From positions 205,791 through 269,790 of IMG/VR virus record IMGVR_UViG_3300011678_000001: a stretch of DNA of 64,000 nucleotides. One strand, given 5' to 3'. The notes below the pieces were generated by a model. It ran no database searches. It was not told where the DNA came from and saw nothing but the letters and a program-made list of their open reading frames with translations. The translations under genes and the position numbers were made by a program. Origin of the DNA: a virus (lineage: Duplodnaviria > Caudoviricetes). Positions 17,420-24,837 of the stretch are shown in pieces. Every line of letters begins with the position of its first letter. The stretch's first letter is position 1.

Positions 17420-18157
17420 TTAAAGGTAATTCCAATCCGGTCTGTTTTCAGACTTAAGACGGTAAGCTATTGTTGATTCACCTAGTCCAAGTATTTTAGC
17501 CGCAGTAGCTATACTCGGGTAGGACACACCTTCAATTACAATTGCCTTTTGGCACGTTTCTAACTGTCTGGCTCTTGCCGTAGGTGTGAAATGAACTTCG
17601 CGGCGGGCATTTGCCTCATTCATCTTCTGGCGCGTCTCGGGACTGATTCCTCCATTGCGGTGCCATGCTTCTGACATCTTCCGACGAGTTTCTTCGGAGG
17701 CAGGGCCTTGAGCAGCACGTGCCTTTGCCATATTGGCAATCACCTGTTCTCTAGGGCGGGCAAAGTTCATCTGCCTAACACGTTCGACATTTTGAGGCTG
17801 TAGAGCAAACCTGCGAGACGCCTCTATTAAATGGTGCCGGTATTCTTCAGGCATGCCGCCTGCCCACACGCCTGTAGACCCTGTCCCTATATTAGCAAAC
17901 AATGGGTCGCCTGCGTGGAAATCGAGCAGTGATTGCTCGTGACGACGTGCTGAATCTAATGTCGAATATTCTACATACTCGATCTGGATGTTGTGCCAGC
18001 CGGAGTAAGACCGTTGAAAAATATGGTTATCGTGGACTCCCCTATTTAACTTCGATCTATGGCTGCTAAGTCTGGCACTAAGATTACCTGTACTTCCGAC
18101 ATAGAACATTCCCGTCACTACGTCAGTTAAGACGTACGCAGCAGGAATGCTACGCAC
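17420..18157 (-). CDS. free-standing GIY-YIG homing endonuclease (Seg-like) #1
   Basis: AAY-N10-YVG, R...H, HxN, catalytic E (RHEQ), NUMOD3-like SEETRRKMSE repeats and C-terminal HTH YPSIATAAKILG. Lower GC; GTG start with GGAG RBS. Confidence 0.9.
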   Translation of the reverse strand: MRSIPAAYVLTDVVTGMFYVGSTGNLSARLSSHRSKLNRGVHDNHIFQRSYSGWHNIQIEYVEYSTLDSARRHEQSLLDFHAGDPLFANIGTGSTGVWAGGMPEEYRHHLIEASRRFALQPQNVERVRQMNFARPREQVIANMAKARAAQGPASEETRRKMSEAWHRNGGISPETRQKMNEANARREVHFTPTARARQLETCQKAIVIEGVSYPSIATAAKILGLGESTIAYRLKSENRPDWNYL

Positions 18158-20299: not shown

Positions 20300-20719
20300 T
20301 TAAATATACGTGTCGAGGTAGTCTGTCAGCTGGTCCACCGTGTGAACAGGCCGATGCAGGCGGTTGTCACGGTCGGTCAGGTGAATAGCGATCTTGTGGG
20401 TGTCGGCTGCTTTGACCAACTTGTTCCACAACACGCTGTCACGGCTTTGTTCGTGAGGCTTGTGGTGTTCGCTGCTGTCATAGACGACGTACGTCTGATC
20501 GTCGCGGTCCATGAACCCGGCTGAGTAAAAGATGGTGCCGTCATGGTCGTGCTGATACAACTGGACGACTACGTAAGAATCGCCCAAGAGAGAACGGACC
20601 TTCTGGAACGGCACAATCAAATTGTGCAATGCCTGATCGGTGGACTCGGCAATCTTTTTCGCGAGCGCCTCGATTCCTTCGGGGGTTTTCACTGACTCGA
20701 TTAAAGTGGTGATTGTCAT
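20300..20719 (-). CDS. hypothetical protein
   Basis: 139 aa with GGAGG RBS. Confidence 0.7.
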   Translation of the reverse strand: MTITTLIESVKTPEGIEALAKKIAESTDQALHNLIVPFQKVRSLLGDSYVVVQLYQHDHDGTIFYSAGFMDRDDQTYVVYDSSEHHKPHEQSRDSVLWNKLVKAADTHKIAIHLTDRDNRLHRPVHTVDQLTDYLDTYI

Positions 20720-20729
20720 CCTTGCCTCC

Positions 20730-20762
20730 CGGCATAAGGACAGCGGGATTGCTCCCGCTGTC
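20730..20762. terminator. hairpin after phuZ
   Basis: GACAGCGGGA-TTGC-TCCCGCTGTC followed on the minus strand by CTTATGCCG. Confidence 0.6.
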
Positions 20763-20769
20763 GATCGGC

Positions 20770-21762
20770 TTAGAAGATCAGACCGGTGTCCGATGCTTCA
20801 TCGTTGTCGCCTGCAAAGGTCACGGCGCTGGCGCGGGTCTTGCGCTGCATTTCCATTTCCTTCTTCAGACTTTCCAGCTCGGTGCGGATCTCGGAGAACG
20901 AGGTGTTCTCGATACCGAAGAACAGGCTGGTGTTCGATTGCGCCACGGCTGGCATGAAGCCATCGCAGCTGTACGGCACGAAGATGCTCGGCTGAAGGTC
21001 GTCTTGATCGCGCTTGAGGTAGGCAGCCGAGATCGGGTCCTTCATGTTGGACTCAAAGCCCTTGATGGTGTCGTACACGTGGATGCGCGACAGTTGGGCC
21101 GGGACGTCCGTGGACTTGTTGAAGAACACGAAGCTCTTGATGTCTGCAGTATCGAGACCGTGGTTACGGCGGCTGCACAGCATCGCCAAGGAGGCGATCA
21201 TCAGGTGGGCTTCTTTGTCGATGGCCGAGCGCGGCACATCCGGACGGTTCATGCCGAACTGAATGACGACCGGCTTGTCGACCGCACGACTGATGGCATC
21301 GAGGGTCTTCATGGTGCCGATGGTGTTTTCAGCGGTCTTGATCGACTCGTACGAGCCGGTCACAACACCAACGGTCACATGGCCGTCTTCGAGCAGCTGC
21401 TTCATGATCAGCGGCCCAGCCACCGAACCCGTACCGCCGGAGGCGGTGAAGATTACGATGTTCAGGTCAGCAGGCTTGAACTTTCGCAGGATGTCCGGCA
21501 CCGCTTTGGCAATGGTCTTGTCATTGCTGTTGCGGATCTTGCCCGAGCCATCGAGGTCGGTGAAGAGCCAGGTGTTCTCGACCAGGCGATCATCGAGGTT
21601 GGAATCGGAGGTGTCGATGCAGGCCAGTTGGAAGTTGGCGATGTCGGCACTGTGGCCCTCGTGGAAGCTGAGGTATTCCTTACCGAGGTTGATTCCCCCA
21701 CCCCCGCACGCATACACCCTGATAGTACCCACGGGCCGAGTGCTTAGTCCTGTTGTTGTCAT
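20770..21762 (-). CDS. phuZ: PhuZ tubulin (phage spindle protein)
   Basis: ACGGGGINLG T1 loop, IDTS, GSGK, SGGTGS tubulin signature, LDTAD, and acidic C-tail ending DTGLIF. Confidence 0.95.
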   Translation of the reverse strand: MTTTGLSTRPVGTIRVYACGGGGINLGKEYLSFHEGHSADIANFQLACIDTSDSNLDDRLVENTWLFTDLDGSGKIRNSNDKTIAKAVPDILRKFKPADLNIVIFTASGGTGSVAGPLIMKQLLEDGHVTVGVVTGSYESIKTAENTIGTMKTLDAISRAVDKPVVIQFGMNRPDVPRSAIDKEAHLMIASLAMLCSRRNHGLDTADIKSFVFFNKSTDVPAQLSRIHVYDTIKGFESNMKDPISAAYLKRDQDDLQPSIFVPYSCDGFMPAVAQSNTSLFFGIENTSFSEIRTELESLKKEMEMQRKTRASAVTFAGDNDEASDTGLIF

Positions 21763-21794
21763 GTGTATCTCCTCACTATGGTAGTTACTGCTGA

Positions 21795-22493
21795 TTATTT
21801 AGATCGATTAATTCGACCGTGTAAGGTGGAGGTTGGAATGCCCAGAATCCTAGAAGCGTCAACTAGGCTCGGGTAACACACTCCTTCGTAAACTATTTCT
21901 TTCTTTCGACTTTCCGCCTGGCGGAGCTTAAGGTCTGGATCGTCAATGTACTTTTGCCGAAGTCCCTCTGAGACAGATCGTTTGGTTTCAACTGATCGCT
22001 GCCGCCCAACGTGTTTAGCTCTGAACTCCGGATCTTTCCACAATTCCTTAGAGCGCTCTGACTGTACCTGCCTGGCTGCTTCGTCGGAAAACTGGCGACG
22101 AGTAGCCTCGCTCAGCTTCCTCTTGGCCTCTTCAGGGACCGGGACACCTAATCCTGTTCGACGGGCATCGGTAGCTACGTTAAACAGTCTGCCTTGACTA
22201 TGGCCGGCGTCCAGCAAATGCTGTTCAATGTCAAGCGCTTCTTCTTTACTTTCGGCTTTAATGAAACCCAGGTCGAAACGAGGATCGTCATCATAAGCCT
22301 TTTGTAAATTTGGGTTCCGGTGAGTCCCGTCTTTCAAACGGTTCTTGTGCTGATTAATGCGGGTATATAGATTATGCGTGCTGCCGACATATGCCCTGCC
22401 TGTCTTTTGGTGAGTCAGGACATAAGCCGCTGGAAATGAATGTTCTTTCCTTGTCGGTTTGCCCCTCAGAGAAGCAAGAACTATGTCGTTCAT
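21795..22493 (-). CDS. free-standing GIY-YIG homing endonuclease #2, inserted at the phuZ 5' end
   Basis: AAYVLTHQKTGRAYVGST..RINQH..HRN..LDIEQ..LFN and C-terminal HTH YPSLVDASRILG; lower GC. Confidence 0.9.
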   Translation of the reverse strand: MNDIVLASLRGKPTRKEHSFPAAYVLTHQKTGRAYVGSTHNLYTRINQHKNRLKDGTHRNPNLQKAYDDDPRFDLGFIKAESKEEALDIEQHLLDAGHSQGRLFNVATDARRTGLGVPVPEEAKRKLSEATRRQFSDEAARQVQSERSKELWKDPEFRAKHVGRQRSVETKRSVSEGLRQKYIDDPDLKLRQAESRKKEIVYEGVCYPSLVDASRILGIPTSTLHGRINRSK

Positions 22494-22496
22494 CGC

Positions 22497-22571
22497 TTAC
22501 ACCCCTGTATTGTCCCCGCACGCAAAAATCCTGATAGTGCCTACGGGGCGAGTGGAGAGACCAGTACTCAT
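22497..22571 (-). pseudogene. orphaned 5' stub of phuZ (MSTGLSTRPVGTIRIFACGDNTGV*)
   Basis: 15 of 17 aa identical to PhuZ residues 4-20 (TGLSTRPVGTIRVYACG); has its own AAGGA RBS and the upstream promoter motif. Confidence 0.85.
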
Positions 22572-22633
22572 GGAGGATGTTCCTTCTTTGGGTTGCTTGG
22601 GTTGTGTTGGTTTAGAACGGGTATTGACGCAAG

Positions 22634-22661
22634 GATAATGTATCATTACATCGGATTCGAT
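22634..22661 (-). promoter_or_regulatory. putative early promoter ATCGA-N14-TACATTATC driving stub, endonuclease and phuZ
   Basis: Same motif and spacing as upstream of chmA. Confidence 0.65.
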
Positions 22662-22796
22662 TAGGTTCGTGGAAAATCTAAAGGGGTTAGAGCAGGGCTA
22701 CGGTCAGATCGTATGTATGAGGTCGGTATAACGACTTAATGAATTGTCTGCCCCGCCTACAAGTTTCATATTAACCATCCATTAGGAGAATTCATA

Positions 22797-23624
22797 ATGG
22801 TAGATTTAGTGACCGTGGCTCTTGACCGCGTTAAATTCGAGGTGCCCTCGGAGGTGCTGCGCTATACATTCTCTCCGACCCGTTACGATCCCTCCAAGGA
22901 AGGGTTGATCCGTGACTTCAGTACCGGTATCAGCAATGACACCGTGATCCGGCGTCAGGTCGTAGAAGCCCGCGTGCTGGTGGACATCAACCTCTGCACC
23001 GGTGTGGAGGTGTTCATTCCACTGGTCAATGTGCAAGCTGATCGCATTGACAACTGGACGTACGTCTACCGTATCCCGAAAGAACTGACCCAAGGTCGCA
23101 GCATTACCGAAGTGTACGGCTTGGCTTACGGCATGGGCAATACGCTGGGCAATGTGGGAGTGATCTCAGAAGACCGTTCGATGGTGTTGGAAGCCGCGGC
23201 CGGGTTGCTGCAATCCAATTCGGCGTGGACTCAGGTCCAGACGGCGTACTGCACACTCGTGGCGGACAATACGGTCATGGTCACTAACATGAACCGTGTA
23301 CCGGGCATTGCCTTCTTGCGCTGCATGGTCAGTCATGAACCGAACCTTGCCAACATCTCAAACATCTACGCCGATGTCTTCAGCGAATTGGTGATCCTGG
23401 CCACCAAAGCGTTCATCTACAACCGAACCATTATCCAGCTGGATGAGGGTGCGATTCGAGGTGGTGCGTCGCTCGGGCGGATTCGTGAGATCGTTGACTC
23501 CTACGCTGATTCTAACCAGATGTACAAAGAGCATCTGCGGGACCGTTGGCGGAAAGCAGGCACTATGGCGAACAAAGAACAGAACCGTCGCCTTATGCGC
23601 TATACTGTTGGGTCACGCAGGTGA
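22797..23624 (+). CDS. conserved Chimalliviridae protein, probably virion structural
   Basis: 275 aa with AGGAG RBS; upstream TATG elements suggest a late promoter. Family recognised from memory only. Confidence 0.65.
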   Translation: MVDLVTVALDRVKFEVPSEVLRYTFSPTRYDPSKEGLIRDFSTGISNDTVIRRQVVEARVLVDINLCTGVEVFIPLVNVQADRIDNWTYVYRIPKELTQGRSITEVYGLAYGMGNTLGNVGVISEDRSMVLEAAAGLLQSNSAWTQVQTAYCTLVADNTVMVTNMNRVPGIAFLRCMVSHEPNLANISNIYADVFSELVILATKAFIYNRTIIQLDEGAIRGGASLGRIREIVDSYADSNQMYKEHLRDRWRKAGTMANKEQNRRLMRYTVGSRR

Positions 23625-23676
23625 CAAAAGAAAAATGAACTAGGAGGAGAGGGGAGTCTCTCCCCTCTCTATGCCG
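23625..23676. terminator. bidirectional terminator with TATGCCG
   Basis: A-tract, GAGAGGGGAG-TCT-CTCCCCTCTC, TATGCCG, between convergent genes. Confidence 0.7.
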
Positions 23677-23682
23677 CCTCAC

Positions 23683-24375
23683 TTATCTTTCTTCATGATT
23701 TTTCTGTCGTCTGAACCTACTAACAAGAGTATAGTAGTTAATACCTGTTTGAGCGGCGGCTTCCTTGATGCTGGAGTAATGGACCCCATCTATGGTTACT
23801 GGTCTGGATAAGGCAGCAGCCATTTTGGCTTTATGTGCCGGATCGTCCATCATCTTCTTCGCTCTAGCTGCCTGGGCTGATTTTAGATCTGGATCGTTCA
23901 TGACTACTTTCATTTTCTCTGAAAGCCTTGCTCGAAAAACAGGGTCTACATTCTTGACTTTAGCCTGCTCTAATAAAACCTTACGGACCTCTTCCGATAC
24001 AGTCTTACCTGCCATGGAGCGTCTTGCATCGGTTGCAATATTGAAAAGATCATTGCAAACGTGCCCTTCATCCAGCAATTGCTGTTCCAAGTCAAGGGCT
24101 TTCTCTTTGCTATCGGTGAGAATGGCCGACAGATCAAAACGAGCATTGTTATTGTAGGCTTCTTGCAAGGGTCGGTTATCGTGAGTGCCTGCTTTGAGTC
24201 GAGACTTATGTAGACACACTCGATTATAAAGATTCACCGTGCTACCTACATAACGCTTCCCAGTCGAAGGGTGAGACAGTACGTATGCAGCAGGGACTGC
24301 ATGATCCTTTAAACTGAGGGAGGTAATTGGAGAGGCGACCGCCGGTGGCTGTCTGGACTGATCATTCTCGATCAT
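23683..24375 (-). CDS. free-standing GIY-YIG homing endonuclease #3
   Basis: AAYVLSHPSTGKRYVGST..RVCLH..HDN..LDLEQ..LFNIATDARR and HTH YSSIKEAAAQTG. Start 24375 has a GGAG RBS; alternative start 24423. Confidence 0.9.
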   Translation of the reverse strand: MIENDQSRQPPAVASPITSLSLKDHAVPAAYVLSHPSTGKRYVGSTVNLYNRVCLHKSRLKAGTHDNRPLQEAYNNNARFDLSAILTDSKEKALDLEQQLLDEGHVCNDLFNIATDARRSMAGKTVSEEVRKVLLEQAKVKNVDPVFRARLSEKMKVVMNDPDLKSAQAARAKKMMDDPAHKAKMAAALSRPVTIDGVHYSSIKEAAAQTGINYYTLVSRFRRQKNHEER

Positions 24376-24449
24376 TGCGGTATCTCCGTAGGATGTAACG
24401 GTATCATTCAGATTATGAGTCATTTGCGTATTTCTTTACAAGGGTTGAG

Positions 24450-24495
24450 AAAAAAGAAAGGACAGAGGGGAGCCCTTCGGCTCCCCTTTATGCCG
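24450..24495 (-). terminator. intrinsic terminator with TATGCCG
   Basis: AGGGGAGCC-CTTC-GGCTCCCCT stem; T-tract on the minus strand. Confidence 0.7.
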
Positions 24496-24501
24496 ACAGA
24501 C

Positions 24502-24837
24502 TTAACCAATTGCGGGTTCCTTATCTTTACCGATGATGCAGATTATGCCCACGACAGCGCACAGTAACGCAACGATTAAGACAGCCCAATGACGGTCATG
24601 CCAAATCATCAGAGCGCCCAATATCGTCAACAAGGTCCAGTTAATGACCGCGATGTAGTTGTAGCTAAACACCGTGTATTTAATGGCCCAGCGGATCAAT
24701 GCCGCGTACGCTTTAAATTCCATTCGATACGCACTGCGCATGACCACATACCACCCGATCAACATGACGATGCAGTAGGTAACAAACGCCAACGTGATAA
24801 AATCCGCCCAATATGCTAAGTCAATCATGACAGGCAT
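24502..24837 (-). CDS. small multi-pass membrane protein
   Basis: 111 aa with about 3 hydrophobic segments. Confidence 0.7.
   Translation of the reverse strand: MPVMIDLAYWADFITLAFVTYCIVMLIGWYVVMRSAYRMEFKAYAALIRWAIKYTVFSYNYIAVINWTLLTILGALMIWHDRHWAVLIVALLCAVVGIICIIGKDKEPAIG

Follow-up and report, generated by a model that had tools for sequence, protein, structure and literature searches.

We analysed a 64,000-nt window (positions 205,791-269,790) of the 269,790-bp IMG/VR virus record IMGVR_UViG_3300011678_000001, in which a free-standing GIY-YIG homing endonuclease gene (HEG) is lodged at the 5′ end of phuZ, which encodes the tubulin of nucleus-forming jumbo phages. The HEG is very probably part of a mobile cassette that is specialised on phuZ and brings its own copy of the gene end that it displaces. 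Comparison with related loci shows the anatomy of the cassette, its presence in some and absence from other genomes, the native origin of a phuZ stub left upstream, the foreign origin of the working 5′ end, the horizontal movement of the cassette and the decay of its nuclease gene in one lineage. What a first-pass annotation, made from the letters of the window alone, had observed at the phuZ locus is confirmed in every checkable detail; its main evolutionary interpretation is strongly supported, and some of its other interpretations are revised below.

Anatomy of the phuZ locus

On the minus strand, a promoter-like motif is followed by the native leader, a 24-codon phuZ stub, the GIY-YIG HEG, a new leader with its own ribosome-binding site, and complete phuZ. 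The features are as follows, with L numbers denoting related loci from other contigs.

22633-22644, minus strand: promoter-like motif GATACATTATCC, 5′ of the stub; exact match, unique in the window
22572-22632, minus strand: resident phuZ leader with the Shine-Dalgarno (SD) sequence AAGGAA; 89% identity to the native L009 leader
22497-22571, minus strand: stub, the displaced native phuZ 5′ end, MSTGLSTRPVGTIRIFACGDNTGV; 24-codon open reading frame (ORF) with stop codon TAA
21691-22505, minus strand: whole inserted cassette, ~815 nt; edges from alignments, ± 6 nt
21795-22493, minus strand: free-standing GIY-YIG homing endonuclease gene, 232 aa; assigned by Pfam, PHROGs and a structure model
21763-21830, minus strand: foreign leader remnant with a GAGGAG SD sequence, overlapping the 3′ end of the HEG; 82% identity to the matching L020 stretch
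21691-21762, minus strand: foreign phuZ codons 1-24, working N-terminus MTTTGLSTRPVGTIRVYACGGGGI; 86% identity to the L020 cassette copy
20770-21690, minus strand: resident phuZ body, codon 25 to stop; ~97% identity to L007

Full phuZ (20770-21762, minus strand) encodes a protein of 330 aa with Tubulin and TubZ_C_2 domains (Pfam). Because it matches both tubulin and the phage TubZ C-terminal domain, the protein is identified as PhuZ. The ATG of the HEG lies 3 nt past the stop codon of the stub, the gap between the HEG and phuZ is 32 bases, and GAGGAG is located 7 nt upstream of the phuZ ATG. The coordinates and reading frames first given for stub, HEG and phuZ stand on re-reading the window. 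The cassette (~0.8 kb) comprises a linker with a stop codon and an SD sequence, the HEG, the foreign leader remnant and the foreign phuZ 5′ end.

Codons 1-19 of the stub are recognisable as phuZ, and codons 20-24 are a decayed Gly-Gly-Ile followed by the cassette-borne GAG GAA. The stub and the N-terminus of PhuZ are identical at 15 of 17-18 residues. When the 300 nt upstream of the HEG are compared with the 400 nt downstream, the best local protein match scores 86, against a maximum of 39 in 20 shuffles. The repeat is therefore no product of chance. The genome has four more GIY-YIG paralogues; their flanks score 28-38, as shuffled sequence does, and none of them is duplicated.

Empty and filled alleles among relatives

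phuZ loci were collected from viral contigs (n = 9; PhuZ identity 72-98%). In six of the nine (L008/L014, L009, L010, L011 and L015), the gap between phuZ and the divergently oriented DUF7484 gene holds a single phuZ 5′ end and no nuclease gene. The first-pass annotation had predicted that relatives without the GIY-YIG gene would have no stub, and this holds in these six, in L007 and in the cultured phage pPa_SNUABM_DT01.

The filled state is seen in L012, where the stub MSQGLSTRPVGQVRIYSCG, continued by VIEE and a stop codon, is followed 3 bases on by the nuclease gene and then by full phuZ. Between L012 and the empty locus L011, the phuZ bodies are 97.3% identical, and the stub region of L012 is 95.6% identical to the native promoter-leader-5′ region of L011. 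In contrast, the working 5′ end of L012 is only 67% identical to the native 5′ region of L011. The stub and the downstream body of L012 together reconstruct the empty allele, as the first-pass annotation had anticipated.

The same division of ancestry is found in the window. Its stub is closest to the native L009 allele (86% in the coding part, 89% in the leader), its working copy is closest to the L020 cassette copy (86% coding, 82% leader), and its resident leader and working-copy leader are 62% identical. The stub of L022 matches the native 5′ region of L015. In addition, a 1,101-nt contig from sequencing run X1 is ~94% identical to the window over 22538-22646 and runs straight into the phuZ body, skipping the nuclease gene. 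PhuZ with the 24 working N-terminal residues aligns end to end with PhuZ from HEG-free loci.

The suggested survey for further stub-nuclease-phuZ triplets recovers them in six further lineages: L012, L020/L021, L022, L025/L026, L027 and run X4. In L020/L021, L022, L025/L026 and L027, a stub ending in a Gly run is followed by the nuclease gene and complete phuZ, and a wastewater contig from run X4 has the same stub/linker junction. L023/L024, whose nuclease is 50% identical, have the promoter motif, the nuclease gene and phuZ in this order, without a stub.

A search with the nuclease protein yields six relatives, each encoded between DUF7484 and phuZ. A metagenome scan with a PhuZ alignment yields only two loci, the patterns being too short; the HEG protein search and contig look-ups are far more productive. 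Among cultured phages, the nearest is Pseudomonas phage pPa_SNUABM_DT01, with a PhuZ that is 56% identical and neither HEG nor stub. None of 50,697 phage records matches the locus in a megablast search, and a tblastn search of the HEG against cultured phages finds matches of at most 32% identity, none adjoining phuZ.

Site of insertion

The first-pass annotation had similarity between the two phuZ 5′ ends break exactly at the GGGG nucleotide-binding loop, but homology runs on through the Ile codon. The stub tail of the window (GAC AAT ACA GGG GTG TAA) and that of its relatives (GGC GGT ATC GAG GAA TAA) are of equal length, with 19 of 30 bases identical. The tail is thus a decayed continuation of the gene, which places the junction past Ile24 rather than at the first of the Gly codons.

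At the left edge, stubs end with GGT ATC (L020 and L022) or GTC ATC (L012), followed by GAG GAA (GAG GGA in L020) and TAA GCA ATG. The corresponding sequence of the window, GAC AAT ACA GGG GTG TAA GCG ATG, is a decayed counterpart of this linker in L012, L020 and L022. At the right edge, the window resembles the L020 cassette up to GGGGGA and is identical to L007 from ATCAAC onward; window and L007 are 97-98% identical on both flanks. L012 turns identical to L011 directly past its ATA Ile codon, and another contig from run X1 is 99% identical to the phuZ body of the window up to 21693, the Ile24 codon, and has a different 5′ end beyond it. Judged from these alignments, the insertion is between the codons of Ile24 and Asn25 (within ~6 nt), directly past the GGGG nucleotide-binding loop.

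The junctions also bear on whether the cassette spreads as a unit. Each stub could instead record a separate one-sided illegitimate repair, made when an HEG located upstream of phuZ invaded a phage too divergent from its own. Such repair is documented in T4 (PMC2988022), L023/L024 have the stub-less upstream layout, and the junctions of L025 and L027 differ from those of the window group. However, L012, L020, L022 and X4 have homologous copies of the 12-nt linker with its stop codon, within ATC GAG GAA TAA GCA ATG, and the window has a decayed one, so the junction of the window group is of common origin. L025 and L027 likewise share a junction motif of their own, with the reading frame of the stub terminating 14 nt past the nuclease ATG. 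Finally, the break point is identical everywhere, whereas independent microhomology joins would scatter. Separate origins of the stubs are thus distinctly improbable, and spread of a ready-made cassette remains our preferred reading.

Nature of the nuclease

The HEG matches Pfam PF01541 (E 2.4e-9; 37.8 bits against a cutoff of 22.6) and phrog_314, homing endonuclease, in PHROGs. The best Protein Data Bank (PDB) match of its AlphaFold 2 model (pLDDT 75) is the catalytic domain of I-TevI (1LN0; TM-score 0.78), and the top structure matches, 1LN0 and 1MK0, have TM-scores of 0.73-0.78 at a probability of 1.00. A PDB search by sequence with the HEG gives nothing meaningful. Residues Y24, Y35-V36-G37, R45, H49, H58, E90 and N105 do not vary among eight homologues, the most distant of which is 44% identical; we take them to correspond to the catalytic positions of I-TevI (GIY Tyr, YIG Tyr, Arg, His, Glu and Asn). 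By sequence and model, the gene is an intact I-TevI-like GIY-YIG nuclease gene with predicted activity. The C-terminal tail matches the I-TevI DNA-binding family PF20987 below threshold in both the window (E 0.011) and L012 (E 0.0011). The tail is modelled as strand-strand-helix-helix, and 1I3J appears only at rank 47 in the structure search.

The first-pass annotation held that neither an intron nor an intein is involved, and this is borne out. In a Rfam search of 20500-24600, no group I or group II intron model is found at E ≤ 1, only two irrelevant weak matches reaching E 1. The stub ends in the stop codon TAA, so that there is no intein, the HEG has its own ATG and SD sequence, and phuZ is complete without the stub. 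These observations speak against a missed intron or intein and against an error of annotation. An error of assembly might be suspected since the sequences are all metagenomic, but IMG/VR, Logan and ENA samples, assembled independently of one another, all contain the triplet. Taken as a whole, an artefact is extremely improbable.

The genome contains five GIY-YIG genes altogether. One, at 23683-24423 (minus strand) of the window, encodes 246 aa, is 44% identical to the phuZ-linked HEG and is convergent with DUF7484; it is also present in L007, missing from L008-L011, and has no duplicated flank. The others are located at 17420-18157 (minus strand) of the window and at C1:187589-188290 and 190791-191522 of the genome.

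The working 5′ end

Seven of the first nine codons shared by stub and working copy differ synonymously, exactly as the first-pass annotation listed, and it had read these differences as recoding. The carried 5′ end is 73% identical to the stub, within the 66-86% found among native alleles. Rather than recoded, it is a foreign allele whose divergence is of the kind ordinarily seen between lineages. The related claim that the working copy uses rare codons stands in part: four changes are to rarer codons, but one is to a commoner codon and two are neutral, and both 5′ copies are poorly adapted. The codon adaptation of the stub (22515-22571) is 0.45 and that of the working copy (21703-21762) 0.36, compared with 0.73-0.96 in 19-codon windows of the phuZ body. 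The first ~20 codons of phuZ may have undergone repeated exchange with cassettes from lower-GC phages, or may reflect constraints on the start region. The HEG has a GC content at third codon positions of 47%, against 68% for the genome, and is therefore compositionally foreign.

A further claim, that the working 5′ end resists cleavage, is not supported as stated, although resistance may still exist. The Ile24 codon of working copies is ATA rather than ATC in L012, L022/L013, L025 and L027, and the window and L020 have GGA-ATC. We considered a consistent immunity substitution in the working copies and rejected it, the sample being too small and not phylogenetically independent.

Horizontal movement, mosaicism and turnover

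The HEGs of the window and L020 are 90.5% identical in amino acids and 87.7% in nucleotides. The PhuZ bodies of the same two phages are 49% identical in amino acids (66.6% in nucleotides), and their DUF7484 proteins 66.8%. Since HEGs that are 90% identical reside in phages with 49% identical PhuZ bodies, the cassette moves horizontally.

The nuclease itself is a mosaic. When the window (21795-22103) is compared with L012 (L012:5622-5999), the catalytic half is 96% identical in amino acids (93% in nucleotides) and the C-terminal half 54%; PhuZ is 74% and DUF7484 77.5% identical. The C-terminal half, presumably the DNA-binding part, is accompanied by a leader and a phuZ 5′ end that differ as well, which suggests domain swapping within the cassette. 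In L022, L013 and L012, the stretch ahead of working phuZ aligns with the native phuZ promoter and leader. This remnant of a donor leader within the cassette fits an origin from a donor with the nuclease gene upstream of phuZ.

In L013, the cassette has decayed. A C-terminal remnant of the nuclease gene (L013:1477-1641; ...KEIVYNGVTYPS...ILGIPTSTLHGRIKRS...), its last ~40 codons, is fused to the native leader and lies between an HNH gene (587-1366; phrog_374, E 6e-68) and phuZ. L022, whose leader and phuZ 5′ end are identical, represents the intact precursor of this state. On this comparison, the nuclease gene of L013 is decayed and overrun by the HNH endonuclease gene.

A related HNH gene (L007:5148-5921; phrog_374, E 4e-73) is located between DUF7484 and the phuZ promoter in L007, the closest relative of the window. 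The HNH calls for the upstream ORFs of both L007 and L013 are clear in PHROGs and negative in Pfam. L007 has no stub, and its promoter-leader-5′ stretch (L007:5923-6055) is 76% identical to the window (22514-22757). Because this stretch lies between flanks of 97-98% identity, a second endonuclease family appears also to have brought in a foreign phuZ 5′ region, one that ends at the Gly run. Among related genomes, the phuZ-linked GIY-YIG gene is present or absent at one fixed site and is accompanied by foreign, co-converted flanking sequence.

Could the arrangement be old and vertically inherited, the cassette no longer homing and the HEG-free alleles being secondary, formed when the stub recombined with the working 5′ copy? 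Direct repeats of 57-72 nt (~73% identical) permit precise deletion, the HEG has decayed in L013, and the decayed stub tail of the window implies some age. Yet an HEG identity of 90% alongside 49% for PhuZ and 67% for DUF7484 is impossible by vertical descent. Moreover, the empty alleles match the entire stub including its leader, with no chimeric cassette-derived tract, and the catalytic residues are invariant. Vertical inheritance is accordingly very unlikely, in our estimate, and a cassette that still moves accounts better for the locus.

Promoter-like motif and putative expression signals

The first-pass annotation placed a promoter motif upstream of the stub, and such a motif, GATACATTATCC, is indeed present. 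It is kept at the orthologous place in L007-L012, L020, L022, L023, L025 and the cultured P. aeruginosa phage pPa_SNUABM_DT01. Its 9-mer core TACATTATC has 7 copies in the genome against 1.3 expected (~five-fold enriched), 6 of them on the strand of the phuZ locus. The form (G/A)(C/A)TACATTATC, followed by TG after 3-4 nt, occurs 5′ of genes at C1 43510, 75434, 150650, 179843, 214106 and 228432, all on the minus strand. The TACATTATC motif is probably a promoter class of the phage group to which the window belongs.

Because the motif is conserved in all these relatives and its core is enriched and strand-biased, transcription from the resident promoter is likely. GATACATTATCC is the candidate resident phuZ promoter, which would now drive the stub, the HEG and phuZ. 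No copy of GATACATTATCC survives ahead of working phuZ in the window. A scan for sigma-70 promoters and terminators, which is ill-suited to this phage type, gives nothing above shuffles. At the stub-less locus L023 (L023:1380-1540), tandem promoter-like motifs GATACATTCG and CATACATTATCC precede the nuclease gene; an earlier duplication, or the loss of a stub, may have left them.

That the stub stop codon hardly shifts its place suggests translational coupling from the stub to the HEG. Folds of the stub/HEG and HEG/phuZ junctions have z-scores of -1.07 to +0.75. Short-window folds at the HEG start have z-scores of -2.07 in the window and -1.95 in L025 and are not significant in the other lineages; a regulatory hairpin at the stub/HEG junction is unsupported by these scores. 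A small hairpin (22470-22498, minus strand; GCGAUGAAC / GUUCUUGC, 6-nt loop; -14.7 kcal/mol, z -2.07) surrounds the HEG start codon in the window; L012, L020 and L022 retain it, apart from one A-U pair replaced by G-U.

Alternatively, the nuclease could be domesticated and kept for a benefit to the phage, for instance exclusion of the phuZ alleles of competitors or use as a co-infection weapon, and the stub would then be a functional upstream ORF that tunes nuclease translation. In favour of this, the stub of 6/6 lineages terminates either no more than 3 nt ahead of the HEG start or 14 nt past it, the catalytic residues are conserved, and a precedent is provided by the PhiPA3 intron endonuclease, advantageous against phiKZ in the account given by PMC12908238, citing PMC11620839. 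Presence and absence among relatives, decay in L013 and replacement by an HNH gene, however, make up the usual cycle of a selfish element at this locus, and the stub tail decays. We regard domestication as unlikely, if somewhat less so than the two alternatives of separate and vertical origin, and retain the selfish cassette.

Proposed mechanism

We propose the following course of events. The cassette would have been founded by one-sided illegitimate repair from a donor with the nuclease gene upstream of phuZ, a layout that L023/L024 still have. In the locus as it stands, the resident promoter, the leader and the first ~23 codons are cut off as the stub, and the linker supplies an in-frame stop codon for the displaced reading frame and an SD sequence for the nuclease. 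The carried 5′ end is fused in frame to the resident body and yields complete PhuZ, making an intron or intein unneeded. The nuclease would then cut empty phuZ alleles near the Gly-loop codons, and a filled genome would serve as the repair template, its stub with the DNA upstream providing the left homology arm and its phuZ body the right one. The resident promoter would transcribe stub, nuclease and phuZ, and ribosomes finishing the stub may help to start the nuclease. The diverged working 5′ end may avoid self-cleavage and mis-pairing. Conceivably, the nuclease also attacks the phuZ of co-infecting phages.

Several points weigh against this proposal. Cleavage of empty alleles and homing are what we infer from sequence; no observation exists of a cleavage site, of nuclease activity or of a homing event. 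Which way each change went, gain or loss, is deduced in the same way: if stub and working copy recombined, the cassette would be removed exactly, and some of the empty alleles could therefore be secondary. All triplets come from metagenomic contigs, and a phuZ-linked HEG is found in no cultured phage of the collection. The RNA folds predicted for the stub/HEG junction are neither strong nor consistent (z -2.1 to +0.3) and give coupling no firm backing. As the divergence of stub and working copy falls within the native range, selection for recoding is unnecessary. Near the junction, the working copy differs from the presumably cleavable alleles of L007-L009 by 2-4 nt in ~45 nt, so cleavage resistance is not evident from the sequence.

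Comparison with known systems

The closest known system is that of gene hybrids formed by mORFs (mobile ORFs) in fungal mitochondria, found at atp6 of Allomyces macrogynus (Paquin et al. 1994, PMC45324, as cited in PMC3630166) and at atp6, atp9, cox2 and nad3 of Glomus (PMC3630166). In both systems, an intronless endonuclease ORF resides within a conserved protein gene, a carried foreign gene end keeps the gene whole, and the displaced native end persists as a relic that is closer to close relatives than the carried copy is. mORFs, however, replace the 3′ end (the C-terminus), and their ORF is downstream and often in phase with the host gene. In the phuZ cassette, it is the 5′ end, leader and ribosome-binding site that are replaced, a promoter-bearing relic heads the operon, the nuclease is a separate cistron, and the host is a jumbo phage. 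The phuZ cassette is thus the mirror image, at the 5′ end, of the mORF gene hybrids.

The Seg enzymes of T-even phages (SegF and SegG; "intronless homing", PMC155333; PMC2988022) are likewise intronless I-TevI-like GIY-YIG nucleases encoded beside their presumed targets. Seg-type genes spread by double-strand break (DSB) repair with co-conversion of flanking markers and are present or absent among relatives (PMC155333, PMC2988022). They are intergenic, and neither interrupt nor duplicate the target ORF; among our loci, this classical layout is found only in L023/L024 and for the HNH gene of L007. In T4, free-standing endonucleases cleave at a distance, and one-sided illegitimate DSB repair occurs at microhomology (PMC2988022). 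The same T4 review makes no mention of a duplicated gene end.

Genes in pieces (Aeh1 nrdA with mobE, PMC1851037; T4 gene 39/60 with mobA and phage 25 gene 43, PMC2988022) also have an endonuclease gene within a conserved region of an essential gene without intron or intein. There, two polypeptides reassemble, whereas here PhuZ is one full-length protein of 330 aa and the upstream piece is redundant. Among nucleus-forming jumbo phages, the intron-encoded endonuclease of PhiPA3 is described as cutting the virion RNA polymerase (vRNAP) gene of phiKZ (PMC11620839, as reviewed in PMC12908238). It resembles the phuZ-linked enzyme in that it could act on co-infecting relatives, and differs in being borne by a group I intron and targeting an RNA polymerase gene. 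The review PMC12908238 mentions no phuZ-targeting or GIY-YIG element. I-TevI, the td intron endonuclease of T4 (1LN0, 1I3J), shares an N-terminal GIY-YIG domain with the phuZ-linked enzyme and is its best structural match. Both have a helical linker, and the C-terminal tail of the phuZ-linked enzyme, probably helix-turn-helix as in I-TevI, has the weak PF20987 match given above. The two are ~18% identical in sequence, the phuZ-linked HEG is not borne by an intron, and the similarity of the DNA-binding domains is below threshold.

In the literature on PhuZ and homing endonucleases and on Chimalliviridae and GIY-YIG, we found no description of the phuZ cassette, and for phages in general we found none of a design with a carried 5′ gene end.

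Implications

To our knowledge, a homing endonuclease gene occupies a conserved site of an essential gene only with the help of an intron or intein, and otherwise is intergenic or splits the gene. The phuZ cassette takes a different route into an essential gene, that of bringing its own promoter-proximal gene end. phuZ, encoding the spindle tubulin of nucleus-forming phages, emerges as a hot spot of selfish-element traffic. The nuclease family is a candidate source of site-specific nucleases that recognise the Gly-loop coding sequence of tubulin/FtsZ-type genes. In addition, gene calling, pangenome clustering and PhuZ phylogenies can go astray where such stubs and chimeric 5′ ends occur.

The movement of the cassette provides direct evidence that quite diverged chimalliviruses exchange DNA, a finding relevant to the limits of recombination in the phage nucleus and to speciation within the family. 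A broader reading, which we put forward tentatively and consider rather doubtful as a whole, is that replacement gene ends give homing endonucleases, besides introns and inteins, a third and general route into conserved sites of essential phage genes; that the phuZ Gly-loop is a contested homing site of the GIY-YIG cassette and the unrelated HNH gene (L007, L013); and that these elements act as allele-exclusion weapons between co-infecting phages with PhuZ identities down to 49%. If this were true, diverged phages would mix their DNA inside a shared phage nucleus.

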